From assembly GCA_046563655.1 (NCBI GenBank), contig CM102285.1, forward strand, positions 1,922,001-1,986,000: 64,000 bases of DNA, given 5' to 3'. The DNA comes from Yuukianura sp. NJ FZ-2021 (Eukaryota). Both the position numbers and the translations under genes were made by a program. Shown piece after piece: positions 17,582-60,991 of the stretch; position 1 is the stretch's first letter; every line of letters starts with the position of its first letter. The notes under the pieces are model-generated. The model saw only the letters and a list, made by a program, of their open reading frames with translations. It was not told the origin of the DNA and ran no database searches.

Positions 17582-17606
17582 TCTCAATTCGCATGAATTT
17601 TTAACG

Positions 17607-35762: not shown

Positions 35763-36506
35763 TTAAGAATTTGTTTTTGTTTTGAGGTTTTCACACCTTT
35801 TGCGAACATTCAGCATTCCCTTGGCAGAAAATCCAATTTCTTTTAACTTCTTTTTAATAATCCTCATTTGACGTTGTGTCAAGGTCGTTTTAGTTGACTT
35901 GAGTGCCCAAACAGCATGACCTTCTGGTCCAATGCAGAATCGGGACAAAAATGTCGTGTCATCTGCCCAAATTGCTTGAGCAGTGTAAGTAGTGAAGGCA
36001 AACCTAGATTGTGCATCGCTGGACATGTTTTGACGTTGACCTGGATGACCAAGGTTTCTTGGTCTTTTTATTTTGCAGTAGTCAGTCATTCTGCCTTCCG
36101 AAATTTGCAACTTGCAATTAATCTTCATAACTCTACCGTTCCTTGTCCATTTGTGTAAGATACGTTTTCCCATTCTAGGGTTGGACGAAAACGTTGACTG
36201 GCAGTAGACCATGTCAGCATCTTCTCCCTCTTCCCATAACAACCCCTTTGACCTCACAGAGTTCCAGTAATCCATCAGTTGACTTTGGTACAACGTGTAA
36301 CGTTTAGTGTTGAACATTGGAGCGATGGTGTTTATGGGAACCGGGTCAAAGGTCGGCATGCAGCTACACGTAGTGCACCGTGGACGAATGTAATCTCTGG
36401 TTACATCTTTTAAACCTTGGCGCCAATCGAACTGGTCTTGGGCAATTGTAGTTGCAAAAAGTAAACTGAAGAGTAACGACGCTGTGGACTTTATGTGCGA
36501 ACACAT
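35763..36506 (-). CDS. Secreted basic lipocalin-like protein, paralog 3 (more divergent)
   Basis: 247-aa ORF with signal peptide, PRCTTCSCMPTFDP, WADDTT..C, and KKKLKEIGFS..C. Confidence 0.75.
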   Translation of the reverse strand: MCSHIKSTASLLFSLLFATTIAQDQFDWRQGLKDVTRDYIRPRCTTCSCMPTFDPVPINTIAPMFNTKRYTLYQSQLMDYWNSVRSKGLLWEEGEDADMVYCQSTFSSNPRMGKRILHKWTRNGRVMKINCKLQISEGRMTDYCKIKRPRNLGHPGQRQNMSSDAQSRFAFTTYTAQAIWADDTTFLSRFCIGPEGHAVWALKSTKTTLTQRQMRIIKKKLKEIGFSAKGMLNVRKRCENLKTKTNS

Positions 36507-37380
36507 CGTGATTGTTTTAAGGTAGTATAGTGTATTTTGTATTGCGAAAAGATGGTTCTAGTTATACGCAAAATTTCACACTTGAATTGCTAATTTCAGA
36601 TAATGTCCAGATACTATAGAGGAGTCAGAGTGCATTATAATTTCAGATTAATTTAGCTAACTCAAATGTTTGGAACTTTCTTTTTTTTTCTGGGCAGTTT
36701 AGAAGGAGACATTTGTTCAATAAACTGACTTAAGTGGATGTCCAAGCCACTTGATCTTTTAATCCAAAAACTACTTCTGACCAAAATTCTTTTGTTACTA
36801 CTATCTACTCTGGCAAATTTGGTCTATCTCACAATTGCAACTTATGACTACTCGAACAGTAATCACAACGTCTCACTTCACACATTCAAAGTTTACAAAC
36901 ATTTATTCCAAGTGTAAATTCTGCCTGTATGTTATTAGTAAAGTTACCTATAAGAGAAAAATCTCAAGTGTACCAATAAGTACCGTCATTTAGCTCTGCC
37001 GATTATTATTTCGGTCTGCTGATTACAAAAGTTAGCTTTATTTCCACTACAGTTCAAAGAGCAATTCAACTTTGAACTTTCTCTATCATCTTGGCATCAA
37101 AAATTTACAATATGTTAGATCCCAAGATCCCCAAACCGTTTTAGTTTGGAACAATATTTACCATTAGAATCGCATGTTACCTGTACTTTACAACCGACTG
37201 GGAATTCCTATGTTGCGTTCATGGTCAAAACATTGATCAATTCCTTCTTAACTGTCCTCCAAGAATCCATTACCTTCTCAGTTTTGAAAATTTTGAGTTT
37301 ATACCTGAAAAGTACATTGTGGTACAAGCCTACAGGCGAATTCTAAGCAATACGTGCAAATTTAACTAAATTTGCTCAAA

Positions 37381-39726: not shown

Positions 39727-40341
39727 TGCAAGTAAGTTAGAGTTTAGTTTGGGCAATTAAATAAATAAATAAATAACTAAATAACTAAAATTGATAATTT
39801 GGGTTAGTTCAATACATACTGATAGGAATGAGTATTTGTGAAAACTATAACTTTAATAGAATTGGTAGCCAACAGTTAAAACTATAATTTACTCAAACTA
39901 TGTAAGTTCTAAATCAACTTAATACTGAATCAGGGTTGAGTAATAACAACAATTTTCTGCGATTCATCAAATGCGTGGATACAACTGATACAATTCTGAT
40001 TTAACTCGAGACTTAACGCGAATCCGCTGTCTGGGAATTAGTAACCCCATTTTATCGACGCGGGAATTCACTGACATGAATTTTCTGTTTGTCATTCTGC
40101 GAGCGAAAGCAAGATTAAAAATCATCAAGTAAATTCAACATTTCAAGTTAGCCTCTTCATCAATCGTTGTGTTTGCTCTTGGAATTTGTGACTGTCAACA
40201 TAACAATCGTTGACGCCCGGAATCCGAGCCAGTTGCTGTTACACCGTAAATCGTGAGAGTAAATCATTACGTTTAAGTACCAAGATTAACCTTAAATCTA
40301 TCTAGGTTCCTAATTAATTTCCGGTTTCAGAATAATTCATC

Positions 40342-41431
40342 ATGGCGCACCACTGTGGAGGCTGCTGCAATGGAGACCATAATCATATGGATGACAGTCC
40401 TGAGATGGGCATTGAGTACAGTTTGTATACAAAGATTGACAAGGAGAATCTCACGTGCTTGAATGAACGTAGAGATGGGTCCGGTAAGGAAATCTTCAAA
40501 CCCTGGGAAGAAAGACTCATTATGAACAAGGTCAGTTAAAGCTTCTGTTCGTAAGACAGTCTAGTTGCATCTGATACTTTATTATGTATCCCCTCGTTTT
40601 TACTCGTTCGTGTCTTAATTGTTGACCTTATCTTTCTCGTTTAATTTCTTCTTTGATTTTTCAGGTCGTCGAAAGTGACGTTGACGAGGAGTTGCTCTTC
40701 AATATTCCGTAAGTTAAAGCCTTCAAGTACAATTGATATCGAATTGGAATGGAACTAGTATAATTTATTGGTGTTTTGGATTTATTAGGTTTGCTGGAAC
40801 TGTTAAACTAAAAGGAATTATAATCGTTGCACCAGATGATGACAGTCATCCACAACGTATGCGCTTGTAAGCACGGAATGCATTGGGTTTCCGAAATTCA
40901 TATGATTTGATTTTTTAACACCTCGTTTTCAACATGCTTTGCTAAGGTTCAAAAATCAGCCGAACATGACGTTCGACGATGCTCAAGCTGAAGCCGTCCA
41001 AGAGTATGAGTTGCACGCGGATCCCACCGGTCTCCTGGAATACCCTACTAAGTAAATCAATCAATTCCAGTTAAACTCAGCTCACTCGAAAAGCAGACTG
41101 GCCGTATACTTTGTATTTATCTAATTTCAATACTAAAATTTCAGAGTCGTCGCTTTTTCATCTGTGCATCATCTCACAATCCACTTCCCAATGAATTTTG
41201 GGACAGACACAACTCAGGTTTCTTACATTGGTTTGAGAGGTACAAGAAAAACCTGTTTCATCTTTATAGTCTGTGTTTATTTTACACTTCGCTTAACAAC
41301 TTTAACTTCTTTCAGGGGAATGGACACCGCAACAACGGCAAGAAATTACTATTGCCAACTACGAACTGCGACCAAACTTGTCGGATCATCCGAACCGAAT
41401 TTGGGACCAGACCTTTCACGAGGTGCAGTAA
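40342..41431 (+). CDS. PITHD1: PITH domain-containing protein 1
   Basis: Six exons: YSLYTKID..CLNE..FKPWEER | VESDVDEELLFNIP | FAGTVKLKGII | FKNQPNMTFDD | FSSVHHLTIHFPMNFG...YIGLRG | EWT..NYELRPNLSDH. TAA at 41429-41431. Confidence 0.95.
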
Positions 41432-42286
41432 AGCTCCCAAGTATCCAATTATTGTGATTCTCTCAATTAACTCAACATATAAATTCTGGTTAGAGGAAGA
41501 TTTATGTAAAAATTAAAGTTCGTTGGATATCTTATTGTCTTAAATCCTAAAAATAGCGTTCATACTAGCTACTAATTACCCATTTATCTTATATTTAGCT
41601 TAACTATTTTGAAATTACCATTAACAGAGCAAAATTAGGAATGAATCAACCAAAAACCAAACTTGGGAAAAGGAAGATTTGTTAACCCAAGCCGCAACCA
41701 CATTCAGCCCCTCTTCCTCTCCATCCTAAACCGCATTTGCAGTTGTCCTTGTTATCCACTGTGGAATTGTGATGCTCTTAGTGTTACGTGCATAGGTTAT
41801 GTTCTAAGCTCCAGTTGTTAGAGTTCTTAGGAGCTTAAACATTCGCTACAAAATGACCGTGACAGGTCAAGTAATTTTGGTCATGAGTCATTTGTAATAG
41901 TTCTGCGGCGATTTGAGAGGCTTAGGAAGAGACAATGACGTGGAAGATTGGCCGTGGAAGTTATTGGGAATGGTGGATTAAGATTTAAAATCTGATTGAA
42001 TAGCGTGTCAGAAGCTCCTCAAAATCTTTAGCATCTCAAAATGTGTCTTCTGAAGTGGTTCGATTCAGTTTTTATATAGTTTCTTTTGACATTGATTCAC
42101 TTCGAATCTGGAATCCATCCCAACCTAAAGTCAATTATGCAAGGATTAGGCTAAATTAAATTTCGGTAAGCAAGGGAGATGAACTTCAGAAAGTTTTGCT
42201 AGCAAAATCAACAATTTGTCTAAAAAAAAAAGCGACAACGCAACGTTGTGAAATTTTATGCTAACAGCTAAAAACTGGCGCTCACG

Positions 42287-45200
42287 ATGGAAGTCGAATC
42301 GAGCCACGCTACAAGCGGTAAGTTTTAAAAATCTCATTTAAAAAAAATGAGATTTCTTAAATAAAATTTTTGCTTGCTATAGACTCTGAGTCGCGTCGAA
42401 GCGGTAGTACAGAGGATATGCCGTTACTTGAAACTCAGGTAATGCTTCCAAAATTTCGAAAAACAAAATTTCAAAAAAAATCAGAAATGTAGTTTTTGAT
42501 AGTGAATTGATTTTTGTATTGAAAATTTTTCACAGAACGAAATTCCTTATCCGAAGTCTGTGTTCTTCATTGTTGTAACGGAATTTTGCGAACGATTTTC
42601 TTACACTGGAATGCGAAGTAAGTTTTTCGGTTGAATTTGAAAGGTGTCGCGTACATTTAAACTGCAAATGCTCAGAAATACGACAATGATTTGTATTTGC
42701 GCAGCCATTTTGACCATGTACATTCGAAATGTTTTGTACCGTGGAGCTTCGAATGCTGAAGACATTGCCACTGTCATTTATCACGCATTCGTTTCACTCT
42801 GCTATTTTACTCCACTTCTCGGAGGAATCATTGCAGACTCTTTCCTGGGAAAATACAAGTAAAATTTCAAAAAGAAATATTTACAAAAACTTCAGATTTT
42901 ACATATTTTGAAAATGTGTTTAAAAAAAATGTCTCCTTTCTAGGACTATTCTCTACATTTCAGTTGTATACGCCATTGGCAACTGTATATTGTCTCTTAC
43001 CGCTGTGGCTCCACTACACCTACCAAAAATGTAATTTGAAAAATTTATTGTTGCCAAATTCAAAATTTCGCGGGTTTTAAAGCAACGCCTTTTGTATTTC
43101 GCAGTCCGTTCAGTTTGCTGGGATTGGCGCTCATTGGTTTCGGAACAGGAGGAATCAAGCCTTGTGTCAACGCTTTTGCTGGTGACCAATTCAAATTGCC
43201 TGAACAAACGAAGCAGCTTCATCAATTCTTTTTCTTCTTCTACTTTGCAATCAATCTGGGGAGTTTGAGTTCAAATTTTGTCACACCGATCATGCGCAGA
43301 GACGTTTCTTGTTTTGGCTATGACACTTGCTACTCACTTGCCTTTGGAACGCCAGCTCTACTCTGGATTGTGGCTCTCTGTTGGTTCAAATTTAAATTAT
43401 ACAATTTTTTTTTAAATCCCGCGCAATTTTAGAATTTTTTTTAGTCATCTTCTTCTTGGGAAGTCGCCACTACAAGGTCAAGCAGCCTGAAGGCAACGTT
43501 GCTCTGGAAGTTGTGGGCTGCGTGTGGGTTAGTGAATTTAACATGACTTATTTTATTGCAATAATTATAGTTTTAGTCTTCTTGAGACGCACGTCTACGA
43601 CGTGCTGAAGAAGACTATTGATACGACTTTGTCCGTCTGTCTGTCTGTCCGTCCGTCCGTCACGTTTTTAGGACTCTTCCCACTGAAACATTAGCCCCAT
43701 CGCAGTCGGGGGGTTATGTATGGCTCAAGTATTTTCATTAGCTCTACATTTCACTTAAAGTCGTACATTAACAACGCCAAAGTATGCGGCTACTTTACGT
43801 ACCCGCAGTATCGTGGCTCCGCAAAACATTTTTGGTCTCGATTGTACTCAAAATATTTTTTAACAACGAAGTTTTGATCTGCTCATTTTCCGACAATATG
43901 TTAATTTACGTTGTTAATTTAAGCCTAGTTAGAGGGTAGAAAATCCGGCTTAAATGTTTAATATGTGAATAGTGAATGAAATGGGTCAAAATTGCATTCA
44001 CAAGGAATTTTTGGTTTTGATTTTAAAGAAACCACTTTCGAATATTCCTATCAACGTCAATTTTGTGCATGATGCACACAATTGAAGGTTTGTGTAGGTT
44101 TGAGAACTACCCTGAGCATTGCCATGACAACATCGACAATACATTATGTGCATCTTCTTCAACAAATTAAGAACATCAATCAAGAATGATATTTGACTCC
44201 TTCTAAGCGTTCAATTTTGTGCATTTTGTGCACACCAATTTAACAACAATTCAGAGCAAGTATTTTGGGCCTCAAAGCTTTAACATGATTTTGGTTTAAA
44301 TAACCGGTAAAATTGCCAAGACTCATGCACAAAATAGGATCTCATATTTGCACTAAAATTTTTAGCAACGTTTTAGAGCTTCAATTCCATGAAAACGGTT
44401 TCTCAGTTCGTCTACAGTTTTGCGGTAGGCCGGTCTACATGTCGTATCAATTGTCAACTCCCTCCAGAAGACCTATGCTCAACCCTTGAGCATCGCCCTA
44501 CCTTGTTTATATTATATTTATTTATGATAATTTATGTTTTAGCATGCTTTGACAGTTAAGGACCTCACAGCAGTTGGGAAAGATGGAGGTCACTGGCTGG
44601 ACAAAGCACGAGGGAAGTACAGTGCAGGATTTGTGGAAGATGTGAAAGCACTTTTTAGAATTCTGGTTCTAATTTCCCCACTTCCAATTTACTGGGCGTT
44701 GTATGAACAGCAGGTAGCTGTTAAAATATTTGCAAAAACCAAAAAATTGAGGAATTTCATTTTCGAAAAAGAATTCAATTCCAAAATTCAAAATTTTGAA
44801 ACAAGGGATCAACCTGGACACTTCAAGCTACGCGAATGAAAGGCTACATTTCACCGTATCTGAAGCTAAAACCAGATCAAATGCAGGTAAATAACTCTCA
44901 CAGGAATTTTTGAATTTTTATTTAAGTTTTTTTTTTCAAAACTTGGTCTATGGATAGGCGATGAACAGTTTTCTGATTTTGTTCTTCATCCCTCTGTTTG
45001 AGCGAATTATTTACCCACTGATGGCAAAGTGTCACATTCTGAAAACTCATCTTCAGCGCATGTGCGTTGGATGTGTCATGGTTTCTCTTGCGTTTGTCAT
45101 TTCTGGTATGGTGGAGCTGCGCATAGAGGTAGCACAACAGTTTTTGATGTGCAATTTTTCGAAAAACACGTTTTAAGTTTCATTTTTGAAAAATTGTTTT

Positions 45201-46747
45201 GTTTGTGCAGCCGACATACCCCGTCATACCATCCAGTTCTGAAACAAATTTGAATTTTATAAATTCCCTCCCATGCACTGTTGACTTTTACATGAAACAT
45301 TCAGATGCAAATGGACGGGCCCATTTTGCAGCAATTTTGGAACCTTATGAAAATATCAAGTTTGAAAAAATCCCTGCCGGCAAATACAACATTTCAACCG
45401 AATTTTGGAAAATGGACGACTGTAGCATCGAGGTTAACCCAAATTCAATCATAGTGGAAACGGAAGGCGGGAAGGTGCGTTAAAAAACAGATTCAAAAAG
45501 TTTGAACTTGTTTTGAAAATTGAACTTTTCGTTTTATGAAAATTCAGGCTTATAGTGCGTTTGTATCGACCGACAAAGACAACACAATTCAAATGGAGTT
45601 ATCGGTGGATGATTTGGAAAAGTCACGTGAAGGTGACGCTAAGCTAAAGTGAGAGGGATTACAAATCAAATTCAAACAAAAACAAAATCCAAAAAATTTT
45701 CGTTTTTTTTTAAATTTTTCATAAAATGCAAAAAAAAAAAAAAAATTCAGGGTCATTTATGGTCAGATGAAGAGTCCAAATGCTACGCTTGTTTTGACTA
45801 CAACGGAGGACTACAAAACAACCGTAGCCTTGCACGATGATGGAGGTTGCACGCATACCTGGGAGATTGAACCAAATATGTAAAAAGTTTTAGTTTTTCG
45901 AGAAAAAAAATTTACTTCGTTTTTTTAAAGTTGATTTTTTTCAATTCAGGTACAAGATTTGTTTGAATGACGGTCCACATCGGAAGCTTCTGTGCCAAAG
46001 TGTTTTGTTAGACGAAGGCGGAAATTACATCATCGCTGTTTTTCCTGAGCACCTTGGGAAAGGAAGCATAGTAGATTTGGATGCAAGCGTTGTAAGTTTA
46101 GGAGTTTGGCGGGAAATTTTAAATTTTAAAATGTTGAATTTGAACATTTTGAATTTGTTCAGGCGCTGAAGGTATTTGTGATGACGAGTCCAAATTCAGT
46201 TCACATGCTGTATCTTCTACCACAGTATGTCATGCTGACTTTAGCGGAATTATTCTTTTCAATTACCGGATTCACATTTGCTTACACTCAGGTACATGTG
46301 TTGAAATTTTTCAAACTACTTTAAACATGTTTTGAAACTTTGTTATTTTGGTGTTTTAAGGCCCCGGCAAGTATGAAAGCAGTGATCCAGAGCTTGTGGC
46401 TTCTAACAATTGGACTTGGTAGCTCTCTCGTTATTGTCATCACCAGTTTGGACTACTTTGAACGACCGGTAAAATTTTTTATTAAAACACCTTTGAATCA
46501 AGATTTGTGCCAACATTGTACTTTTTAAATCATTATTTTCCAGGCAATGCAATTCTTTTCATACAGTGTCATTATGCTTTTTGGAACTGCAATATTCAGC
46601 GTTCTTGCATATCGATACAAACCTATCGGAACAGCCACTAGCACGCCCACTGAAGATTCAAAACCAAGTACAGCTAGACGCAAATCCAAAGATTTTGTTA
46701 TGGATTCAGAAGAAATTCGAACAATGGCGCTAGATTTAGCTCAGTAA
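42287..46747 (+). CDS. Proton-coupled oligopeptide transporter (SLC15/PEPT1-type, yin-like), copy A
   Basis: Multi-exon gene with YPKSVFFIVVTEFCERFSYTGMR, GGIIADSFLGKYK, GTGGIKPCVNAFAGDQF, FYFAINLGS, WALYEQQGSTW, an extracellular loop, QAPASMK and a TAA stop. Confidence 0.93.
43571..44508 (+). mobile_element. Non-autonomous Helentron/DINE-1 (HINE)-like element inserted in a transporter intron
   Basis: 5' hairpin TAGTCTTCT..GCACGTCtacGACGTGC..AGAAGACTA, a GTCY microsatellite, a 3' subterminal inverted copy CTCCAGAAGAC, a 3' stem-loop ATGCTCAAcccTTGAGCAT and T-rich ends. Absent from the 87-nt equivalent intron of copy B (51646-51732). Confidence 0.85.
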
Positions 46748-47585
46748 AACTTGTACAACAATTTCAATATTATTAGTGTTTCATAAAATATAAATCAACT
46801 AAATCTAGTTTTCTTAAAATATTCCTGTGATAACCAAAACGGAAATAAAAGGCGTCAGAAAACATCCAGCCACTTTAAAATTACTGCGATTGCTATTGGT
46901 TCTGAACTTGTGACACGAGTAGCGATGAGTCCAAATCCATTTCAGATTCTGAAAAAGATCAAATTAATCTTTTAGTGTCTTGTTGACATTGTAGAGCCTA
47001 AACACAAAGTTCACACCATTGACATGCGCATGGGACGCCATCTTGGGTGTCACTTCATGTCCACGATGATTTGAAGCACTGACTGCTTCTGTCCAGCTTC
47101 TTGTGACTGGTCGAACCGGAATAACTGGCTTGCTGGCAGCAATGGCTAAACGAGTTATTTAAAGAAACCTGAAATTTTGAATGTTTAGTTTTGGAATTCA
47201 TGATTTGTCGTTTTCATCTTGCGTTTTTGGAGTTACCTGTTTGCAACTTTGCATGAATGAGACCCAAAGCACGGCGCACAACACAATGACATTTGCCACA
47301 AATTGTGGCTCCATTACAACGAAACTTGCGTTGGTTGGACGCGCGTTTTCGAAGACACTTCTCACACTCCCAGTTTCCCATTATGAGTTTACAAACTTAC
47401 GTTTTCAAAAGAATCGACAAGTTTCGACAACTAAAACTTTCCAGAAAAAATGTCTTTCGTAATACGCAAAGATTCAGGTTCAAATGAGATTTGATGACAT
47501 TTTGACACAACGGAGCTTCTTTTTTTAAACAAACGGTGTGCAGTGTGCACCGGTAGCCACGTTTCCAAGGAAACTGGTGTCATTC

Positions 47586-47633
47586 TTTTTAGTCTTCTGG
47601 AGACGCATGTCTACGACATGCTGAAGAAGACTA
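47586..47633 (+). mobile_element. 5' hairpin fragment of the same HINE-like family
   Basis: TTTTAGTCTTCTGGAGACGCATGTCTACGACATGCTGAAGAAGACTA is nearly identical to 43571-43617. Confidence 0.8.
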
Positions 47634-47838
47634 AATAAAAGCCCAGATTTTCCTGACTTTTCAGAGTCTGCTTTTGCCCAGTTTTTAATACGTCAGCGTT
47701 TATTAGCGTGCAATGTGGGATACTCAACTGTTTTTATTTGTATATTTCTCCTCAAGGTTGGTCTTTAAAGAAGCTGTTGCTATAGTAACCTTGATTTCTC
47801 CTCCTTCTAGTATTCATACAGTGCGTACTTGATTCTTT

Positions 47839-48966
47839 TCACATTCTAGTCTTTTTACATTCCTGGTTATTTACAGAACGTTTCAAAATGATTGAATCCG
47901 TAAAAGTTAGTCGGTACCTCGGGCCGGGTATATACAATTGTAAATGGCCGTCCATACAATTGTCCAGAAGGTCTAAAAACGTTTCCAATTTTGAATCTGA
48001 GGGATATGACGTTAGAAGTATTCCTCGAAGATACAGGTATTCTACAGCATCTTCTGTTAGCTTTTGACACATTTTTTTCACACATATGTTGAGCTCTTTC
48101 TGGAGTTCCAGTTGGTTTACGTTGCACTTGAGTTGGAACAACATATAATTCTGCTCTTTTGTATGAACATCCCTCTTGATTCCAAGAATATCATTGACTA
48201 AAGATCCGTACGAATTGGCAACATCAAAAAGTCTGGTCATGTATGGAGACTCCAATGCCGCTTTTCCTGGAAGTATGTCATGTAAAATAGCAAAAGTGAC
48301 GGCAGTTCCATCCATGAATAATACAATATTTCTCCAATATTTGAACATGTCTACGTTCCGAAAGTCTTGAGTCCCAAGAGAACAAACTAGTTCAGTCGCC
48401 CTGCTGTACCTCCTTCGGTAATAAAGGAATGCCGGAAGTCCTTCAGCAAATCCCGGAAACAATCGCATTCGGTCACGAATATGAACCAATGACGCACACA
48501 GTGGGGCAAACAAGTGGCAGACTTGTTCTGGAGGTCCAAGGCCAGAGTCATCTTCGCACCACAGCCGCTGAAAGTGGTCGTTTTGTTCTCTAATCATTGT
48601 TACAGCCGTAGGTGGGGATTGCTCAATAAAGTCGTCAAGTAAGACACACCAAAAGACAAGTTGGATTTCCAGGTCCATAACGTCATTGTCCAAGGGTGAA
48701 CGATGGTCGAGGTAAACCCCAAAAATTACACAAGCTGTGGCGAAGTGTTTGAGGTCTTCGCGTCGATTTGAGAAGTTGAAGTATTCATCAGCCCACTTCA
48801 CAAGGTTGGACACGAGACGTTGGAGTTCTTTTTCATCCAGGTCAGGTCGTTCCGTTCGTGGTCGAATGCGAGGAAACGTGCCGCGGACACGAATGTCACC
48901 GGGGAGTGGGGATGGAAACCCTATGTCGAACTCCACATGGCCTTCTTGATGGACGGCTGAAAACAT
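47839..48966 (-). CDS. Microbial-type class I terpene synthase (alpha-only fold), intronless
   Basis: 375-aa ORF with LLDDFIE (DDxxE), the effector Arg in YWRNIV, NSE/DTE-like NDILGIKRD, and C-terminal PRY, in the order typical of bacterial, fungal and amoebal terpene cyclases. Confidence 0.9.
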   Translation of the reverse strand: MFSAVHQEGHVEFDIGFPSPLPGDIRVRGTFPRIRPRTERPDLDEKELQRLVSNLVKWADEYFNFSNRREDLKHFATACVIFGVYLDHRSPLDNDVMDLEIQLVFWCVLLDDFIEQSPPTAVTMIREQNDHFQRLWCEDDSGLGPPEQVCHLFAPLCASLVHIRDRMRLFPGFAEGLPAFLYYRRRYSRATELVCSLGTQDFRNVDMFKYWRNIVLFMDGTAVTFAILHDILPGKAALESPYMTRLFDVANSYGSLVNDILGIKRDVHTKEQNYMLFQLKCNVNQLELQKELNICVKKMCQKLTEDAVEYLYLRGILLTSYPSDSKLETFLDLLDNCMDGHLQLYIPGPRYRLTFTDSIILKRSVNNQECKKTRM

Positions 48967-49451
48967 TTCGAGTCAAAGTTAAAACTTTGGTTAAAGGTAG
49001 CACATTGTTAAAAGTGAAATACAGCTAAAAGTTTAAACATTGTTAAGAGTTTCGTTTATTAGATGAAAAGTTATTGGTTTCTGCTATCAAATTTTCTGCT
49101 CTTACTTTCTTCAGGGACGCATTCCATTTTTCTTGATGTCAAATGTCAAATAGATGAAGATGGGCGGCACAGTGTGGTGAGACCACAATGCACAAAAATA
49201 ATAACATAAAAATTAAAGCTAACAATTGAAAATCAAAACTTGAACACCTTAGACAAAGGAGCTTTCTTTCCATTTCAGTTTCACTTTGCTAAAATTTACA
49301 ATTTGTGTCAAGGATAAAAGGAAGATGACGAGTTGCATCAAGGAGTGCAAGTCAAAATAAAGTAACTGTAAAAAATACTGTTAACAATATTTGTGTAGAG
49401 GAATTTTCGAAATGCGAAATCAAAAATTTATAAAATTTCAAGCTCTTTCAG

Positions 49452-49680
49452 TTTTAGTCTTCTGGAGACGCATGCCGTCGACATGCTGAAAAAGACTATT
49501 GATACAACTTTGTCCGTCTGTCTGTCTGTCCGTGTGTCCTGTTTTTTTATCACTTTTTCCACTGAAACATAAGCCCCATCGCAGTCGGGGGTGTTTGGGG
49601 ATGTTCGGGTCAGGTTTTTTCATTAGGTCTACATTGCACTCAAAGTCTTAACGTTAACAACGTGAAAGTTGTATGGCTGG
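49452..49680 (+). mobile_element. Truncated HINE-like element copy
   Basis: 5' hairpin, GTCY microsatellite and CACTGAAACAT.AGCCCCATCGCAGTCGGGGG shared with the 43571 copy. The 3' boundary is approximate. Confidence 0.8.
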
Positions 49681-50413
49681 TTCGCGTTGCTGTTAAGTCC
49701 TAAAATTTTTGTGTTAAAAAAACCTAAATTAGCGATACCCATTTTTTGATACCCAAAAATTCACAAGTTAAATTTAGTAAAAAAAATCTATTCAAATTCA
49801 AAAATGTTTGTGCCATACATGTCAAACATGAAAGCTCCGACGGGATCACCCCATAAGAACTTAATATAATACGTTTTTATCTAGTGTGGGATTATGCAAT
49901 GTTTTTGGTGTTACGAGCATAAGTTATGTTTTAAGCTCCAGTTGTTAGTGAACTTAGGAGCTTAGTCGTTACTCACTACTGACAGGTCAAGTAATTTTTG
50001 TCGTCAGTCACTTGGATTAGTTCTGAAGCAAGTTGGGTGGCGTAGAAAAAGACAATGACATTGAAGAGTGCCCGTGGAAGTGATTGGGTGTGGTGGATTA
50101 AGATTTAAAATCGGACTGAATATAGTGAGAAGCAGTTACAAAATCTTACCACCTCAAACTTCGTCTTTTGAAGTGCTGTCGCTGTGATTCAAACTTATCA
50201 TTAGTAATCTTCTGACATAATTTCACGTTCATTTGGAAATGAGACCAAACCTCATGTAATTTTAAATTACTTGGATTAGGTTAACTTGGTTTTAGACACC
50301 TTCGTGAACAATCGAGATGAATTAGAAATTTTTACTAACAAAAACAAGTTGTCTAAAAAATTTATTCCAAAGTTTTGAAATTTAACACTAAAATTCGAAA
50401 ACTGACGCTCACG

Positions 50414-53400
50414 ATGAAAGTCGAATCGGGCTATTCCACGAGCGGTAAGTTTTAAGAACTAAACAAAAATTAAATTTTTTGCCAATAAATGTTTGCTTGC
50501 TGCAGAATCAGAGTCGCGCAGAAGCGGAAGTACAGAGGTTACGCCATTACTTGAAACTCAGGTATACTGCCAAAATTTCGAAAATCGGAATTTTAAAAAA
50601 GTTAGAAATGCAGTTTTCCGTAAAATTTTTTCTGTATTGAAATTTTTTCCAGAACAAAATTCCTTATCCGAAGTCCGTGTTCTTCATTGTAGTGACAGAA
50701 TTTTGCGAACGATTTTCTTACACTGGAATGCGAAGTACGTTTTTCATTTAAATTTGAAAGTTTTCGAGCGTATTAAAACTGTGAATGTGCAGAAATACGA
50801 CACTGTTTTGTTTTTGTGCAGCCATTTTGACCATGTACATTCGAAATGTTTTGTACCGTGGAGCTCCGAACGCCGGAGACATTGCCACTGTAATTTATCA
50901 CGCATTTGTTTCACTCTGCTATTTTACTCCACTTCTCGGAGGAATCATTGCAGACTCTTTTCAAGGAAAATACAAGTAAAATTAAAAAAAAAAAACAACA
51001 AACGAAGCAGATTTTCTCTCATTTTCAAAAAAAAAAAAATTCCTAATTTTGCTGTCCATAGGACTATACTTTATATTTCAATTATTTATGCCATTGGGAA
51101 CTGCACACTGTCTCTCGCCACCGTGACTCCACTTCATCTGCCAAAAATGTAATTTGAAAAATCTGCCTTGTTTCAAACTTTGGCGAGCCTTAAAGTTATG
51201 CTTTTTTTCCATTCGACAGCCCGTTCAGTCTGCTGGGATTGGCCCTCATTGGTTTCGGAACAGGAGGAATCAAGCCTTGTGTCAACGCTTTTGCTGGTGA
51301 CCAATTCAAATTGCCCGAACAAACGAAGCAGCTTCACCAATTTTTCTTCTTCTTCTACTTTGCAATCAATCTGGGCAGTTTGAGCTCAAATTTCGTCACA
51401 CCGATCATGCGCAGAGACGTTTCTTGTTTTGGTTATGACACTTGCTACTCGCTTGCCTTTGGAACGCCAGCTCTACTCTGGATTGTGGCTCTCTGTATGT
51501 TCAAATTTTAATTTTACAATTTCTATGAAAAAATTTCCCGTAATTTTGAAATCTTTTTTAGGCATCTTTTTCTTGGGAAGTCGCCACTACAAGGTCAAGC
51601 AGCCTGAAGGCAACGTTGCTCTGGAAGTTGTGGGCTGTGTATGGGTTAGTGGGATTTAACACTATTTATTTCATTCTAATAATTATTTTATTTATATTAT
51701 ATTATATTTAATTATGACAATTTATGCTTTAGCATGCTTTGACAGTTAAGGACCTCACTGGAGTTGGAAAAGATGGAGGTCACTGGCTGGACAAAGCACG
51801 AGGGAAGTACAGCGCAGGATTTGTGGAAGATGTGAAAGCACTTTTTAGAATTCTTGTTCTAATTTCTCCACTTCCAATTTACTGGGCGTTGTATGAGCAG
51901 CAGGTAACTGTTAAAAATGTTTGCAAAACTGATGGGATTGACCAAATCCATTTTCAAAATGGAATTCAATTCCAAAATTCAAAATTTTGAAACAAGGGAT
52001 CAACCTGGACACTTCAAGCTACTCGAATGAAGGGCTACATTTCACCATATCTGAAGCTAAAACCAGATCAGATGCAGGTAACGCTTATACTAGCGTTTTT
52101 GAATTTTGATTTCATTTTTGTTTTTTTTTAAATATGGTTTTTGCACAGGCGACAAACAGTTTTTTGATTTTGTTCTTCATTCCTCTCTTTGAGCGGATAA
52201 TTTACCCTTTATTGGCAAAGTGCCATCTTTTGACGACACATCTTCAGCGCATGTGCGTCGGATGTGTCATGGTTTCTCTTGCGTTTGTTATTTCTGGAAT
52301 AGTGGAGCTTCACATAGAGGTAACACAAGAATTGTTTGAAAATTTTCTTTGAAAATCAAAGTTACTGAATAAAAATGTTTTCTGTAGCCCGAGTATGCCG
52401 TGATTCCATCCAGTTCTGAAACGAACTTGAATTTTATAAATTCTCTCCCATGCACTGTAGACTTTTACATGAAACATTCGGATGAAAATGGACACGTTCG
52501 TTTTTCATCAATTTTGGAACCTTATGAAAATATCAAGTTTGAAAAAATTCCTGCCGGCAAATACAACATTTCAACCGAAGTTTGGGAAATGGACGACTGT
52601 AGGATCGAAGTCAAACCAAATTCAATAACAGTCGAAACTGAAAGCGGGAAGGCACGTTCCGAAAACAGATTGAAATTTTGAAGTAGTTATATGAATTTTT
52701 AAAGTAAGATTTGTTTGTTTTGCGAAAATTTAGGCTTATAGTGCGTTTGTATCAACCGACAAAAACAACACAATTCAAATGGCGTTATCGAAGGACGATT
52801 TGGAAAAGTCACGTGAAGGTGACGCTAAGCTAAAGTAAGAGGTCTTACAAATTTCAAAAAAATCCAAAATTTGTTCCTTGTTATTGATTTTTTTTTTGAA
52901 TTGTTTATTTTTCATGTATATCATGTACGCAATGTTTTTATGTGCAAGGATAATTTATGGTCGGATGAAGAGTACAAATGCTACGCTGCATTTGACTGCA
53001 ACGAATGGCTTCAGAAAAAACGTAGCTTTGTCCGGTAACGGAGGTTACACTCATAGTACGGAAATTCTACCAAATATGTAAGAAAACTCAATTTTTCGAA
53101 AAAAAAATCTACTTTGTATATTTTTGAAGAAATTGATTTTTTGAAATTTCAGGTACAAGATCTGTTTGAATGATGGGCCACATCGGAAGCTTCTGTGCCA
53201 AAGCGTTTTGTTTGACGAAGGCGGAAATTACATTATCGCTGTTTTTCCTGACCACCTTGGAAAAGGGAGGATAGTAAACTTAGATGCAAGCGTCGTGAGT
53301 TCTCTCAGGAGTTTGGCGGAAAATTTTGAATTTGAAAATTATGAACATTGAATTTGTTTAGGCGCTGAAGGTATTTGTCATGACGAGTCCAAATTCAGTT

Positions 53401-53973
53401 CACATGCTCTACCTTCTACCACAGTATATCGTCCTGACATTGGCGGAATTATTTTCTCTATTACTGGATGCACATTTGCTTATACTCAAGTATGTGCGAA
53501 ATTTTTCAAAAAAAAATCAACTTTTTTCAAACGTTTTTGTTTCTGTGTTCTAAGGCCCCAGCAAGCATGAAAGCTGTGGTCCAGAGCTTATGGCTTCTAA
53601 CAATTGGACTTGGTAGTTTTCTCGTAATCGTCATTACGAGCTTGGACTACTTCGAACGACCAGTAAAAAATCTTTTAAAACACAAAAACTTCAAATCGGG
53701 TTGTTTGGGATTTGTAGTAAATCGATATTTTTTAAAATTATTATTTTCCAGGCAATGCAATTTTTCTCATACAGTGTCATTATGCTATTTGGAACTGTCA
53801 TATTCAGCGTTCTTGCATATCAATACAAACCTACCGGGACTGACACTACCACGTCCGCTGAAGGTTCAACACCAAATACTGCTAGACGCAAATCCAAAGA
53901 TTTTGTTATGGATTCAGAAGAAAATGGAACAATGGCGCTAGATTTAACTCAATCAGTAAAACGTGTAAAATAA
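50414..53973 (+). CDS. Proton-coupled oligopeptide transporter (SLC15/PEPT1-type), copy B (tandem duplicate)
   Basis: Same exon structure and near-identical motifs as copy A, with homologous upstream (about 49880-50400 vs 41760-42280) and 3' sequence. One intron needs a GC donor at 52652. Confidence 0.92.
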
Positions 53974-54277
53974 ATCAAGACTGTTAGTGTTTTATTAAAT
54001 ACAAATCTACGAGAATCTAGTATTCCTAAAATATTCCTGTGATAACCCAAATAAAAGATACCAAAGAGTTTCCTGACACTAAAAAGTTACTAAGATTGTT
54101 GTCGTTAGAAGGTTGAAGTGAATTTTAATCACATCTTTCTTTATTGCTACAAGCTATTAGCCAGAAAGCATGCTTAGATTTTGATATATAATACATTTTA
54201 CGTTTACAGTTTTTTAACATGCACTACGAAGCAAAGTATTCGCGAAATGAAAGTTAAAGTTTTAACACTATGTAAAA

Positions 54278-56962
54278 CTAATTGAATACACCAACGTTCC
54301 ATTTTACATCTATAGCACACAAAGTTCTAAAAATTGCATTTACATTTTTCACTAACACTTTTACCCACTCACATAAAAAGCCAGCAAGTGACAGCACAAT
54401 GCCTATTGTCACGAGAACAAAAACTGTACGAATCTTCGATAAGTTTAAAATCTGTGACTCTATTTTGCTATGTTGTGTAGTATTTGTGAGAAAATCCTGT
54501 TCTTCCTTTAAAAATTTGAGGTTGTAGGTCCAATTCATTGACTTTTCCCAATGTAAAATGAATCCTGACGTCGCTAAAACCTCTACTCTTTGTTTCAGGT
54601 ACTCCATAACGTATATGTCATTGAAGGTAAAAATATAGTCAAAGTTGTCTCCACGAATGACGCCTTCGCCATCCTTGTTGTTACTTTGATAGATATGCAA
54701 TTGTTCAGTCCTGTTGTTTTTGTATAGCTCGGCCTTCAGTTCTTGCATAATTGCTTCTTTTACAACAAGAAGATCACCTTTACACTTTAAAAAATGGCGG
54801 GAAGGAGGCCAATCTGGAAAATTTTCCGGAGAAACCAAACTGCTAATTAAACTTTTCCACAAATCTGTGTGATTAAACCTGTCGAGACACACTTCTTGTA
54901 ACGTAAAATTTGTTCTTTCTATGACGTTTTCTATATCGTATGCAAAGAACCCTGGTGAACCTATCATTACAGTTAAATCTGCTGAAATTGTTTTACACAA
55001 AGGCGTTTCTTGTAGAAATTTTGACATGAAAAGTATCAGTGCAGCCTGTGATTCGTTTGTTTTCTTTGGCCACTTAAGATTGTCTAGCCAAAATTCTCTG
55101 TAGTAATGAAAGTCATTAGGAATTATTGACAAATTTGATTTTACCGCTTCCTGAAATGTTTTGATTTCCGGTGGAGCAAGTGGTGCCAACATATTTGTAA
55201 TCAGTAGACTCTTGTATGCGTTGGGGAGAATTATAAAAATGTAGCGTATAGTTATGAATAACACAGTAAAAACTAAAGATTTTGTTAGTTTATGTGAGAA
55301 TTCCATCCCTTGTTCCATTGTCACCGTTACAATCATCATAAGTAGCGAGTCTTCAAATTTGTATGCTTTCAGTAGAATTCTACCACCTATGGTGAACAGA
55401 CATACAAAAATGACCAGACCTAACCAAAGTCTGGAATGAAATGGTTTCAAATAAGCCGTAAAACTTAATTCATCTTTTAAATTTACACAACCGAAAAACC
55501 CAAAAGCATTCCTAGTTGATCCATGCAAAGCTACAACAGTCCAAATGTATCCACCTCCAAATAATCCCAATTTTCGTGTGTGGAGCTCTTTCAAGTCAAG
55601 GATTAACAGATTGACTCCTAGAAAATTATCTTCGTGATATCTTACATTTCCACAGTACTGCCAACCTTTGTATTTTCTGTCTGCTAGGAACGGGATTGTG
55701 TAGTTGAGCATAATCTTGTCGCGCATGCGTCCGTAGATGTCAAAGTTCTGAATTTGGTTGTTTACGTAGTCTGCAGGCATTTGGAATGTTTTGCAGTTGT
55801 AGTCCGGTGTAAACTCCATAGTAATGTTTTGAAAATACAAGAATATACTTTTTAAAACATGGTTTCTAATACACTGCTCTGTGACTTTTCCACTATTTTG
55901 GAGATCTTGCGCTAACGTGTAGCTTGACATTCCGTAGTAAGTTTTGTTTATCGTAGAAGACAATCCTTTTGCCCCATGGTCTAAATTTATATATTATACA
56001 TTCATGTTATATATACATTAACTATGACAATAGACTGAATGTTCAAAACTACTGTATTAGAGGAACCCCTGAATTAGCAACAAAAAACCCTACCCGTTCT
56101 CCACCTTCTTGTGTGGAACCTCAATGAGGCCTACTTGGACGCCCGTGGAAAGGATTGGAGAAAAGGTTGAGGTTTTTTGTTGCTAATTGAGGGGTTCCTC
56201 TGCAGTAGGCACTATCACTACACATCATTGTGCAGTACACTGTAGTATGTAGTATACTGTATACATTGTACAACATGCAATATATATTACAAATAGTGCA
56301 TGTTATATATGGTAACCAAAAATATCCAATAAGAAAAAGTATTGTAAAGATGTCACAAAGATGTTCTTACCTTCTTGGCATGTTAAGTTGAAAAGCTGAA
56401 CTGCGCAAAACGGATGTTGACCAATTGTATTTTCTTGTAAGAAGAACGTATGTAAACAAGCATTGACTTCAATGGAATTTGGCCCAACAAAGTATGTGAC
56501 CCCCACTACTCTGCTTAGTAAATTAAGCCAAATAAATGGCACAGTATTTAAATTCAGATGTTCTGCGTTTTGTGGCACTACGTTGACTATATAAGCAAAC
56601 CCCATTGGGTGATTTAAATATTTAAGTCCAGACTCCGTTTGAGGGTTTGGAGAGATGTCTACATACGGATTATTCTCTCCATAATACGATCTGTATTCCT
56701 CTATGTTATAAAACACGGCTTCCGAATAATGTTTACCAATGACTTGTTGAGTGTGATTCAGCGATAAAACGTAAATTAGCGCAAAGCAAGGGTCTGTTCT
56801 TGCAAGCTTTGCCGTGATATAAAACATTCTCCATATAGAAGTGTTAGCAGCTTTCGTTGTTATTGGAAACTCAAAAGGCTCCAGAGGGACAGTAGTATTT
56901 GGGTAGATGACTAATAGGTTGTAGCAGAACTCAAAGGTCGCAAGTACACTAAGAATCCCCAT
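54278..56962 (-). CDS. Divergent IR-like protein (2 exons)
   Basis: Exon 1 56962-56371 (..CQE G|gtaag) and exon 2 55980-54278 (tag|AC CAT) join in phase 1. Motifs HGSTRNAFGFFGC, YLKPF..W, NAYKSLLITNMLAP and M4. Confidence 0.82.
56059..56201. mobile_element. MITE in IR-like gene intron
   Basis: 31-bp inverted repeats AGAGGAACCCCT(G/C)AATTAGCAACAAAAAACC with one mismatch. Confidence 0.85.
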
Positions 56963-57355
56963 ACTAGCAAATGAGACAGGAAAATTGTAAATGAAATCCT
57001 AACTTGAAAAAGAAAACGGTCTTCAAGCAACAAAGTGATAAAGAATAAAGAAATTAGCATGCTACCTGGTGTCCGTCAAAAGGTTGCATGTTTATGCAAC
57101 AGGTAGGTCTGCATCCAATGTCTTCATAAATATTTAGAATTTTAATGCCCAAAAAAGTTAAATTTAGCCTGCAGGAAAAATTTTCTATCTTAATTTTTAA
57201 ATATATTGTGTTAGATATGTCAAAGGTGATAGAGCACCCTACCATAGTGTTTAGTGCAATACTTTGTACATTAAGAAAAAGTCTTCGTAAAGCTGAAAAT
57301 TTGGATAAAATCTTGACAAGAAAATTCAATCACTTCTATTTTACATAATTTTGAC

Positions 57356-59771
57356 TTAAAGTTTAACCACAATGTCTCTAGCATGAATGAAACTCAAAAG
57401 TGCATTCACGCTTTTTACTATGACGGACAACTGCAAATATAAGAAGTAGAACACTGAAAATGCAATTCCTATTGCTCCAATAACAAAAACTGATCGCAGT
57501 TTTTCCAGACTTAGGACAAGGTCATTAATTTTGTCGTTTTTTGTTGCTGAAAGAAATTTTTGTTCCTCTATCATAAATTTTAGGTTGTTTGTCCAATTCA
57601 AAGACTTTTCCCAGTGTCGTAGAAACCCTGAACTGCCTAATACATCCACCCTTTGCTTCAAGTACTCCAGAACATACATGTCATTGAACGTAAAAATATA
57701 GTCATAGTTGTCACCACGAATGATGCCCTCATTTTCTTTGTTATTGCTTTGGTAAATGTGTAGCCCTTCAGTTTTGTTGCTTTTGTACAACTTTACTTTT
57801 TCTTCTTGCATACTCGCTTCTTTTACAACCAGTAAGTGATTACTACATTTCAAAAAATGGCGGGAAGGAGTGGAATTTGGAAAATTTTCCGGCGGAACCA
57901 ACTTAGTGATAACACTTTTCCGCCAACCAGTGTGATTAAACCTATTGATACATATATCTTATAACGAAAAGTTTCGCTTATTTATTCTCGTGCTTATTTC
58001 GTCAATTGTCAAGTCTCCTGGTAGTGTAACTTCAAGAATCATATCTGAAAATGTTTTGCACAGCGGTGTTTGCTGTAAAAAATTGGACATGAACAGTAAC
58101 ATGTCATTGTCTGATTGTGGTAGTCTTTTGTGCGTTTCGTTCCAGTTATTACACATCTGCTTCCACAGGAAGTAAAATTCATTCGGAATCAGATACGAAT
58201 TTGAATTCGCCGCTTCCTGAAACGTTTTAATTTCATGCGGAGTCAGCGGAGCCAGCATGTTTGTAATTAACAAACTTTTGTAGCCGTTGGACAAAATTAT
58301 AAAAGCGTATCGTAGAATTATACAGACAGCAGAAAACGTCAACAATTTAGTCAACTTTGCTGAAAAGTTAACACCTTGTTCCATTGCTATGGTTACAAAG
58401 ATAATAAAAAGAGAGTCTGTAAATTTGTACACGAGAAACAAAATCTTGCCAATTATGGTTGCTAATACACCCAGTACGACCAGTCCACACCAAAGGTTGA
58501 AGTAAAACGGTTTTAAATACGCGCCAAAATTCATATCATCCCGAAATTTTATGCAACCAAAGAACCCAAAGGCGTTTCCAGTTGATCCATACATCACTAT
58601 GGTATGCCACATTAAGCCACCACGGAACACTGGTCTTCGAATGTGTAAATCTTTAACATCGGAAACAAACATATGTAGTCCAAGAAGATCATATTCATCA
58701 AATGTACTGAATGTGCAATACTCCCAATTTTTGTACTTTTCATGGGTTAAGAATGGACCCAAGTAATCGAATAGGATGATATGATGCATGCGTTGGTAGA
58801 TGTCGTACTGTTCAGGATGTTTTGCCACATGTTTAGCCCTGTCAGGGCTAACCATTACGCAGTTCCTGTCAACTAGAAAGTGCTTTGTTAAGTTTCTAAA
58901 CTGAGAAAATGTTCCGCTCAAAACCAAATTTCTAATAGATTGCTCCGTCATCAGTCTTCTGGAGTTTGGTTTAGTTGTTCCCAAAGCAGCCTCTTTTGCG
59001 CAAATATCTAAAAAACATATTCCACGTATTACTAATATTCAGAATTGTTTTCACAGTTTATGCTTATCATACGCTTATTATGGAATTTCGACGTTGTACG
59101 TATGTTTGTATGTCTGACTGTCAACTTATGTGCTCATCTGCGACAATTATTCATAATTAAATAATGTTGGTATTACCTTCTTTGCATGTTGGATTATGAT
59201 ACGCCAGGACGCAAAGTAATGGTTGAGAATGAGTGAGAGAATCTCCATGTCGTAAGAAAACCTTCAGTAAGCAGACGCTTAACTCATAAGTATTTGGCAA
59301 GAGTGTGTAGGTGATTGCGACGACTCTGCTTTTTAAATGAAGCCAAGTGAATGGTTCTGCGGGCGAACCTTTAACTTTAACTTTCGAATTCAGTACAGAA
59401 ACTATATAAGCAAAACCAATTGGTTGGTTCAAGTATTTCAGCGGTGACGTAGTCTGCACATTTGCACTATTACGATCAGGTGGCGTCTGTCCATAATATT
59501 CCTTGTACTCCTCCACATTGAAAAATACTGAACTTTGATACTCTGTCCCAACAACTTCAGTAAAATTTGGCGGAAGTACGTATATTAAGGCGAAACATGG
59601 GTCTGTTTGTGCCAATTTTGCCGTCACGTACATCATTCTGTATACTGTTCTATTGACAGATTGTGTTGCCAGTGGATGAAAGAAGGGTTCCATTTGAACA
59701 GTTGTCGTTGGGTAGACAACAAGCAACTTATAACAAAACTCAAATGCTGCTAGAATGTGAGCCAAACCCAT
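57356..59771 (-). pseudogene. Divergent IR-like gene with a single in-frame premature TAA
   Basis: Exons 59771-59177 and 59007-57356. TAA at 57961-57959 sits where the neighbouring paralog has CAA (NFSL-Q-DICIDRF), and the frame is intact downstream to the normal stop. Confidence 0.82.
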
Positions 59772-60991
59772 TGTGAGGATTGATATTGTTAAGATTCCGA
59801 CTAGCTAGTGTCAACAGCACTTTGCTCAAATGTTTCAGCTTTTTAGAAATTAGAATTAAAAACATCTCTTAGCATTTTGAATAAATGCTCCATTTTTATG
59901 CATTCAAAAGTAGAAAGTAAAGACATGCTATATTACGTGTCCACTACAGATAAGCCACAAATTCCTCTTTTTCTACATTTTTTGACCACTTCCAGACAAT
60001 CCCAAATGGTCTCAAATGATCAATTATTTTCAGAGGTAAACTTTGAAAGGATAAGAAATACAATTTTTTTTAAATTCCCAATAGAACGTTGGAATTTTGT
60101 TTTCCCAAGAGGTCCGGGTTCTTGGGAGCTATTACAACATGATGTTACGTAAGGTGAAATCGTGCTTTGGTGGGTTTCATTCTAACTGTAGACCTTGTTT
60201 TCTTCAGAGAGTTGTTGTTTTCATTGTAAATTTCAGGGAGACCACCCCACCTCCACTCCCCTACCCAACGGTCGACCTTTAGAAAAAAAATGGAGTGGTA
60301 ATAAGGTCAACCAAACCCATTATGTGACAATAGCATTGAAATTACGAGTAATTTTAGCACGATTGTAAAGCTTTTTATGACAGACGGTTAAAACTGATTG
60401 CCCATGTGTAACTACTATAACTAACGATAAGATGTTTATATTTACAATTTTACAATGCGGAAATTAAGCTTGCGCAACAATTCAAGTAACTAACATTAGT
60501 CAAAACTACATTAAAATAAGGTATGATCAAAAAACTTGCTGCAGAAGAGTTTCGGTAACGTACTTAGCGTACTTAGCAAAGCGACAGAAATTTCAGCGAC
60601 AGTTTCAAAAAAATGCTACGCTATACTCATCCTCCATAACACCTTCGGACTCACCAGCATCTCCATGTTTTGTATCAAATGGGCTTCAACTTGAGTACTT
60701 TTTTAAACTTTTAAACAAATTATTTTCCCGGCAAATCTCGGTGGGTCGTGAAGTGTTGGCAGCAGCCAAATTTTTAATGAAATTCCAAGCGTCTGAAAAA
60801 AAAGCTTTCCTGCAATAAAATGGTAAACAACAAAGAAATTTTCTGGCACGGTTTCTGACGTCGGGCATAAGTATTGGCGTGCTTCCGCAAGAAATGATGT
60901 TGCCTGCAATGTCTTCATCAGCATTCAGAATTTATAAATTCATAACGGGGAAAATTCAAATAGATTCGTTTTCCTTTTATATAATTTTGAC

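Follow-up and report, generated by a model that had tools for sequence, protein, structure and literature searches.

The locus described here raises the question of how a gene that resembles a microbial terpene cyclase, encoded in a single exon, has come to lie between intron-containing animal genes, and whether it is part of that genome and still specifies an enzyme. The window, i.e., the whole stretch of 64,000 nucleotides that was analysed, is AT-rich (GC 0.37) and holds a single run of N at 11569-11668. An earlier note on this DNA had claimed an intact, single-exon reading frame for a terpene synthase (TPS), and the frame has indeed been located exactly at 47839-48966 with its 375 codons; open reading frames of at least 375 aa have occurred in 0 of 200 block-shuffled windows, in which the maximum length was 187 aa. 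An in-frame stop is situated at a distance of two codons upstream of the ATG (the stop-to-stop frame begins at 48972). The alignment to the best relative runs from end to end, with query residues 7-357 corresponding to residues 13-363 of a 371-aa protein, and therefore one exon accounts for the whole protein. The gene and a candidate signal for its 3' end are placed as follows:

47839..48966, minus strand: complete, single-exon coding sequence of TPS, an ATG-to-stop frame of 375 aa plus stop encoding a class I alpha-domain homologue
47699..47704, minus strand: AATAAA, candidate polyadenylation signal as read from the sequence, ~135 nt past the stop codon

That TPS is read from the minus strand is a detail absent from the earlier note. 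The sequence 3' of the gene contains no long poly(A) tract and thus gives no sign of retroposition, and a reading of the N-terminus by eye has made no signal peptide evident. TPS is a real gene, and it is probably functional.

The genes on either side had been described as intron-rich, and multi-exon eukaryotic genes have been confirmed there, with a PTR2 transporter on both flanks of TPS. The neighbourhood comprises the following features:

~41772..46839, plus strand: POT/PTR2 (SLC15-type) transporter, tandem copy 1, multi-exon, with PF00854 matches
~49899..54051, plus strand: POT/PTR2 transporter, tandem copy 2, with blocks that match copy 1 at 82-94% nucleotide identity
47587..47633, no strand assigned: 47-nt palindromic repeat 3' of TPS, with 91-94% identical copies at 49452-49498 and 43571-43617
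49450..49669, no strand assigned: ~220-nt interspersed repeat 5' of TPS, composed of the 47-nt palindrome and a GTCT-rich tail
40.3-41.5 kb: PITH-domain gene, multi-exon
3.8-10.9 kb, minus strand: carboxylesterase gene in six pieces
15.1-15.8 kb: trypsin-like protease gene, multi-exon
37.4-39.7 kb and 54.3-62.7 kb: clustered ORFs that are large, resemble receptors and have no Pfam match

TPS sits inside the 3.1-kb spacer that separates the tandem PTR2 copies. Copy 1, for which 7 of 45 scanned ORF pieces are colinear with PF00854 positions 2-349 (at least seven pieces), ends ~1.0 kb from the TPS stop codon in a tail-to-tail arrangement, and copy 2 lies head to head with TPS, its start ~0.9 kb away from the ATG on the upstream side. 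For the receptor-like ORFs, a language-model look-alike search has returned nearest Atlas clusters that all belong to Arthropoda, some of them annotated as ionotropic receptors, and this search is the one source of the lead that the flanking genes are specifically arthropod. A tblastn search has found no second copy or fragment of TPS in the window. Pfam matches of its 278 stop-to-stop ORFs of at least 60 aa, a set that shorter exons would escape, include no P450, prenyltransferase or methyltransferase, and no biosynthetic gene cluster is evident around TPS. Rfam families and tRNA genes each number zero in the window and so offer no hint of a taxon.

An intronless gene whose family is typically found in bacteria and fungi may bring to mind a microbial contaminant or a chimeric assembly, with TPS lying outside the animal genome altogether, and arthropod assemblies with contaminants are documented. 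However, sequence without any N leads from TPS to the multi-exon PTR2 genes ~1 kb off on either side, and the ~220-nt repeat that adjoins TPS recurs within an intron of PTR2 copy 1 (43569-43783, 82.5% identity over 223 nt). The composition of the TPS ORF (GC 0.439, GC3 0.428, CpG observed/expected 0.92) lies in the range of the host ORFs for all three measures (GC3 0.365-0.504), and its relative synonymous codon usage correlates with that of the pooled host ORFs at r=0.43, as compared with 0.26-0.81 for the host ORFs among themselves. Furthermore, two pattern scans, queried with the single TPS protein and with alignment A2, have found no bacterial or archaeal relative in 185,579 species genomes, which is a weak negative, as few exact peptide patterns were used. 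Because the PTR2 genes adjoin, composition and codon usage are host-like, and host repeats flank TPS, we consider contamination very unlikely, in line with the argument already made against it, on which the N-free continuity, the host-like composition and the shared repeat all agree. The 47-nt palindrome yields a hairpin of -13 kcal/mol (z=-5.7). The idea of a mobile unit that carries TPS and is bounded by same-orientation copies of this palindrome, 1865 bp apart, has been considered and found unsupported.

Regarding the family to which TPS belongs, its single sequence scores 18.5 bits (E=0.0018) against Pfam PF19086 Terpene_syn_C_2 and misses the gathering cut-off of 23.7 bits, and a Pfam scan of the ORF at E<=1e-4 has assigned no family. 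None of the NCBIfam models matches the TPS sequence, a single-sequence phmmer search of the PDB has given chance-level matches only, and a word-indexed search of 5.8 billion proteins has returned 0 matches. When 1.84 billion cluster representatives were scanned exhaustively with HMMER, 22 relatives were retrieved, 11 of them at E<=1e-10 and two at E<=1e-30; the best one (E=1.1e-45) is 32% identical over the full length, and the top identity of TPS to any library sequence amounts to 32-33%. The PF19086 gathering score is reached by 17 of these 22 relatives, and no Pfam family has been matched by P0009, P0010, P0015, P0019 and P0022. One relative, P0021, is annotated as 'hypothetical protein'. 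When alignment A1, which consists of the query and 15 relatives, has been used as a profile against solved structures, the best match has been 10-epi-cubebol synthase (7zrn, E=1.7e-23), followed by T-muurolol synthase (9hqd, 1e-21), BcBOT2 (8h6q, 1.7e-20) and pentalenene synthase (1ps1/9c7l, ~1e-16). The HMMER check with Terpene_syn_C_2 that the earlier note had proposed has accordingly come out divided, with the single sequence below the cut-off and the majority of relatives as well as the profile in favour of the family. In an Atlas feature (look-alike) search, the nearest clusters of TPS are all terpene synthase, with a score of 0.95.

The predicted structure agrees with the profile matches. 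An AlphaFold (AF2) model computed from alignment A1 has reached a pLDDT of 84.3 and a pTM of 0.85, and it replaces a single-sequence model that was unusable (pLDDT 35.9). The predicted model shows the all-helical class I terpenoid synthase fold, and terpene cyclases lead its 198 Foldseek matches in the PDB at E<=0.001, namely pentalenene synthase (E=7e-8, TM 0.63/0.72), BcBOT2 (TM 0.66/0.76), aristolochene synthase and bacterial diterpene synthases, with TM values of 0.6-0.79. Against viral structures, Foldseek has found no match at E<=0.001; the best one, an Orpheovirus terpenoid synthase, has been obtained at E=0.018, and a viral relative of TPS is unsupported. The model further contains an extension at the N-terminus:

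48871..48942, minus strand: predicted N-terminal beta-hairpin extension, residues 9-32, with strands 9-18 and 24-32 and a block pLDDT of 81-90

The hairpin closes with a conserved G-x-x-P-R-I-x-P element, in which G29, P32, R33, I34 and P36 are invariant in P0001 and P0002. Solved terpene synthases start to align at about profile position 46-55, and the conserved N-terminal segment of ~45 residues is without counterpart in the aligned solved chains. A family feature of this kind was missing from the earlier note; that the hairpin might act as an active-site cap is speculation.

Four catalytic motifs had been reported for TPS before (DDxxE, effector Arg, NDxxGxxRD and RY), and all of them have been recovered intact at canonical spacing, an arrangement found in 2 of 100,000 shuffles of the TPS protein:

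48622..48636, minus strand: Asp-rich first metal-binding motif D111-D-F-I-E115, with the DDxx(D/E) column conserved in alignment A1
48331..48333, minus strand: Arg212 at the pyrophosphate-sensor position, exactly 46 residues upstream of N258
48169..48195, minus strand: second metal-binding motif N258-D-I-L-G262-I-K-R-D266 at the NSE/DTE position, a Gly/Asp variant
47914..47919, minus strand: diphosphate-binding pair R350-Y351, with R350 nearly invariant in alignment A1

Within the second motif, hardly any variation is seen at N258 and D259 across A1, and measured against the consensus (N/D)Dxx(S/T)xxx(E/D) the sequence NDILGIKRD carries Gly at the Ser/Thr position, a variant also described for active enzymes of sponges and plants. 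The motif is recognisable in 13 of the 22 relatives, among which Gly takes this position in 11 (Ser in P0016 and P0018) and the final residue is Asp in 6 and Glu in 7; in P0005 and P0017 the Gly is present and the final acidic residue is missing. TPS has Arg at -46, and so do 11 of the 13 motif-bearing relatives, with Lys in P0002 and Gly in P0014. In bacterial enzymes, this position is that of the pyrophosphate sensor. A diphosphate-sensing role of R212 would further be suggested by the enzymes described in PMC13638087. The residue six before R350 is Leu, which agrees with the absence of the Trp of WxxxxxRY as stated earlier, and this Trp is missing family-wide in A1.

The Gly, the Asp and the missing Trp had been read in the earlier note as hints of an unusual product. 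As the Gly/Asp triad and the missing Trp recur across the relatives, they are marks of the clade and not peculiar to the TPS gene. Moreover, PMC9992776 describes NDXXGXXXD in 12 of 13 sponge type I terpene synthases that have been characterised and are active, and a second sponge has been reported to carry it in 9 of 10 enzymes (PMC13483135). Since the Gly/Asp motif is clade-wide and the same as that of the active sponge enzymes, it gives no pointer to an odd product, and the earlier hint is not supported.

Because the profile, the predicted fold and the motifs agree, with the second metal motif in its Gly/Asp variant, and despite a single-sequence score below the strict Pfam cut-off, TPS is a homologue of the class I terpene synthases that consist of the alpha domain only, and not a derivative of isoprenyl diphosphate synthases (IDS). 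The latter type deserves consideration, as it comprises most of the characterised insect terpene synthases according to PMC11665903. However, no prenyltransferase family is found among the Pfam matches of TPS at E<=1, and therefore an IDS-derived enzyme is excluded as an alternative. The protein holds one DDxx[DE] motif only, its relatives belong to Terpene_syn_C_2, and its best solved matches are terpene cyclases. Refuted as it is by the Pfam results, by the family of the relatives, and by the profile and Foldseek matches, an origin of the insect type is given next to no credence. The 'microbial-type', non-IDS identity that had been proposed from the sequence holds on the same evidence.

To place TPS among its relatives, a maximum-likelihood tree has been computed that comprises the query and every relative of at least 200 aa, 17 in number; the shorter P0011, P0013, P0015, P0020 and P0022 were not included. 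P0001 and P0002 are the partners of the query in this tree (support 100/99), and the terminal branch of the query is long, with 1.24 changes per site, a length that would fit relaxed constraint or an altered function. As far as the sequences indicate, TPS would belong to a small, very divergent clade that is marked by NDxxGxxx(D/E) and by the conserved N-terminal hairpin. A horizontal origin of the gene is plausible.

One might instead suppose that TPS stems from an old animal TPS lineage common to sponges, either by vertical descent with many losses or by transfer from animal to animal, and not from a transfer of its own from microbe to arthropod, with NDxxGxxxD as a synapomorphy. The combination of NDxxGxxxD, RY and a single exon is the signature described for sponge type I terpene synthases (PMC9992776; PMC13483135), the authors call the NDXXGXXXD motif rare among microbial enzymes and known in plants (PMC9992776), Gly prevails among the motif-bearing relatives of TPS as counted above, and the two pattern scans have brought up no bacterial relative. 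A transfer of TPS between animals, from mites to sciarid flies, has also been proposed (PMC11665903). However, a motif of three residues can converge, and Gly occurs at this position in plants too; the best solved matches of the family profile are bacterial and fungal enzymes, and sponge terpene synthases have been reported to form a monophyletic clade of their own (PMC9992776). On balance, descent from such a lineage is regarded as rather improbable. NDxxGxxxD has been highlighted only for sponges in the literature searched, and Gly variants may already be contained in the arthropod alignments that supplement PMC11665903 and PMC13638087. There is a possibility, albeit an unlikely one, that TPS and its relatives define an animal clade, characterised by the sponge-type triad and by the conserved N-terminal hairpin with G-x-x-P-R-I/V-x-P that solved microbial enzymes lack, that reflects either a common origin of arthropod and sponge enzymes or a new arthropod lineage. 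In the former case, the TPS clade would tie the enzymes of arthropods and sponges to a common origin; in the latter, TPS would occur in arthropods outside Acariformes, Collembola and Sciaridae, which would widen the animal range of canonical TPSs. The position of the clade in a wider tree would bear on whether terpene synthases originated in animals a single time or repeatedly.

Taken together, TPS is probably an intact, integrated gene for a canonical class I TPS of an animal, most likely an arthropod, that was acquired horizontally long ago, has become adapted to its host, and makes terpenes, likely sesquiterpenes from farnesyl diphosphate (FPP), as semiochemicals or defence compounds. Of this reading, the data show the ORF, the motifs, the homology, the fold and the host context; how the enzyme acts, on what substrate and in what role, and that the gene came by horizontal transfer, is inferred. 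The mechanism follows by analogy with solved class I enzymes. In the proposed mechanism, D111, D112 and E115 at one edge of the mouth of the active site, with N258 and D266 at the opposite edge, would hold a cluster of three Mg2+, with a water molecule or the backbone substituting at G262. This cluster would bind the diphosphate of the prenyl diphosphate together with R212 as the diphosphate sensor and with R350 and Y351, and thereby trigger its leaving; the carbocation so formed would be folded, cyclised and quenched within the helical barrel. Cytosolic farnesyl diphosphate is the likeliest substrate, given that sesquiterpene synthases lead the profile matches among solved structures, and sesquiterpenes would be the expected products; the lack of an evident signal peptide fits the use of cytosolic prenyl diphosphates. 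Promiscuity for GPP and GGPP is described as common among the arthropod TPSs tested to date (PMC11665903). The products of TPS may serve as semiochemicals or defence compounds, and the ancestry of the gene would be an old horizontal acquisition, separate from the isoprenyl diphosphate synthases, after which its composition would have become fully host-adapted.

Intact motifs are no guarantee of activity, since ScTC4 of a springtail (PMC13638087) and BcTPS4 of a fly (PMC11665903) have been reported as inactive in vitro with their motifs intact. TPS could accordingly be a decaying or non-catalytic relic that was acquired and has since lost its expression or its capacity to make terpenes; the very long terminal branch, the Pfam score below threshold, and the solitary state of the gene, which has no paralogue in the window, agree with such a fate, as do the inactive enzymes just named. 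However, a relic is difficult to reconcile with 375 open codons compared with a shuffle maximum of 187, with four catalytic motifs that are all intact, with a full-length alignment to the relatives free of frameshifts, and with a confidently predicted fold, and we consider it improbable.

The finding of TPS as an integrated animal gene can be set against several known systems. Among arthropods, the first report of canonical TPSs concerned trombidid mites, for which 39+17 and 21 genes at <=30% identity to microbes were given (PMC6275457). A survey of 361 insects and 76 other arthropods has reported them in 12 of 15 Acariformes, 2 of 3 Collembola and 5 Sciaridae, and the active ones yield mono-, sesqui- and diterpenes (PMC11665903). 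For springtails, 277 TPS genes have been counted in 21 of 26 genomes, 152 with an intron and 125 with none (PMC13638087). In view of these mite, springtail and sciarid reports, a single-exon microbial-type TPS among arthropod genes is already known; the rarity of such genes was overstated in the earlier note, as Collembola and Sciaridae carry them too and many are intronless (PMC11665903, PMC13638087). TPS resembles these arthropod enzymes as an alpha-domain-only class I protein whose gene is chromosomal, lies beside intron-containing genes, as theirs do, and lacks introns, as theirs often do; it further shares the host-like composition, an identity of ~30% or lower to microbial enzymes, and the set of a DDxxD-type motif, Arg sensor, NSE-type triad and RY. 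It differs from the five characterised Sinella enzymes, for which NDXXSXXXE is described (PMC13638087), in its NDxxGxxxD. With host genes ~1 kb away on either side, the locus provides a well-anchored case of a foreign-type TPS fixed in an animal chromosome, and its extreme divergence, with a maximum identity of 32-33%, is mildly new.

With the IDS-derived insect terpene synthases, TPS presumably has the reaction class and the ecological role in common, and it differs from them in its family and in having neither a prenyltransferase signature nor two Asp-rich motifs. The similarity to bacterial and fungal sesquiterpene synthases (7zrn, 9hqd, 1ps1/9c7l, 8h6q and aristolochene synthase) is seen in the fold, at the TM values given above, and in a profile alignment of ~300 residues that covers all motif positions; unlike these solved enzymes, to which the identity in structural alignments is 12-17%, TPS has Gly for Ser/Thr, Asp for Glu, no Trp, and an extra N-terminus of ~45 residues. 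Sponge type I terpene synthases as described (PMC9992776; PMC13483135) match TPS in NDxxGxxxD, in RY, in a single exon amid intron-containing animal genes, and in weak scores against standard terpene synthase HMMs. Their first motif is given as DDxxD, in contrast to DDxxE in TPS, and the host of TPS looks like an arthropod. A sponge-type NDxxGxxxD in what appears to be an arthropod is likewise mildly new.

The single-exon class I terpene synthase homologue has been found in the spacer between two POT/PTR2 (SLC15-type) peptide transporter genes, PTR2 copies 1 and 2, a tandem duplication with 82-94% identity in blocks. The spacer itself is unique sequence, and a conserved eukaryotic gene, encoding a PITH domain, lies directly upstream of PTR2 copy 1 and may be informative about the host lineage. 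The neighbourhood comprises:

40336-41454, + strand: PITH-domain gene, multi-exon (PF06201 positions 3-42 and 124-160)
41772-46839, + strand: PTR2 copy 1, multi-exon
49899-54051, + strand: PTR2 copy 2, multi-exon
43571-43617, 47587-47633 and 49452-49498: 47-nt imperfect palindrome, three copies in the same orientation

Folded as a DNA hairpin, the palindrome reaches -13 kcal/mol (z=-5.7), and in two of the three copies it is extended (43569-43783 and 49450-49669) by a tail of ~180 nt with a GTCT microsatellite. One of these interspersed repeats resides inside an extra insertion of ~0.9 kb that follows position 43534 in PTR2 copy 1. Palindrome and tail together resemble a small non-autonomous mobile element. 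Two palindrome copies, 1865 bp apart, bracket the terpene synthase. The sole assembly gap of the window (100 N, 11569-11668) is ~36 kb away from it.

A further ORF is possibly a second foreign-type gene in the window besides the terpene synthase:

4650-5624, - strand: single-exon ORF, 325 aa

Since it is located between two carboxylesterase exon pieces on the same strand (6163-6372 and 3842-4024), this ORF is apparently nested within a carboxylesterase intron. Its only match has been a META domain below threshold (22.8 vs 24 bits, E=9e-5), a domain known chiefly from bacteria and trypanosomatids; PDB and NCBIfam have yielded no match.

The remaining features are repetitive or paralogous:

17423-18189, - strand: ORFs in which short peptide units (YYAERPL-like and GIIQRDH-like) recur in tandem
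33744-34487, 34647-35369 and 35763-36557, - strand: three tandem paralogous ORFs, 240-264 aa
37366-39726, + strand: large paralogous ORF, receptor-like
54278-55993, 56303-56998, 57356-59038, 59157-59804 and 60992-62701, - strand: large paralogous ORFs, receptor-like

The composition of the peptide-repeat ORFs indicates minisatellite DNA. All members of the 240-264-aa trio begin with a hydrophobic stretch and share conserved Cys motifs; they have no matches in Pfam or NCBIfam. The three look like a lineage-specific family of secreted proteins. The receptor-like ORFs, of which a single exon encodes up to 786 aa, likewise have no Pfam match; a stop at ~57958 splits the stretch 57356-59038, which may thus be a pseudogene. 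In the Atlas they lie closest to arthropod clusters of hypothetical proteins and ionotropic receptors, and so probably represent a tandem expansion of a divergent ionotropic-receptor-like family.
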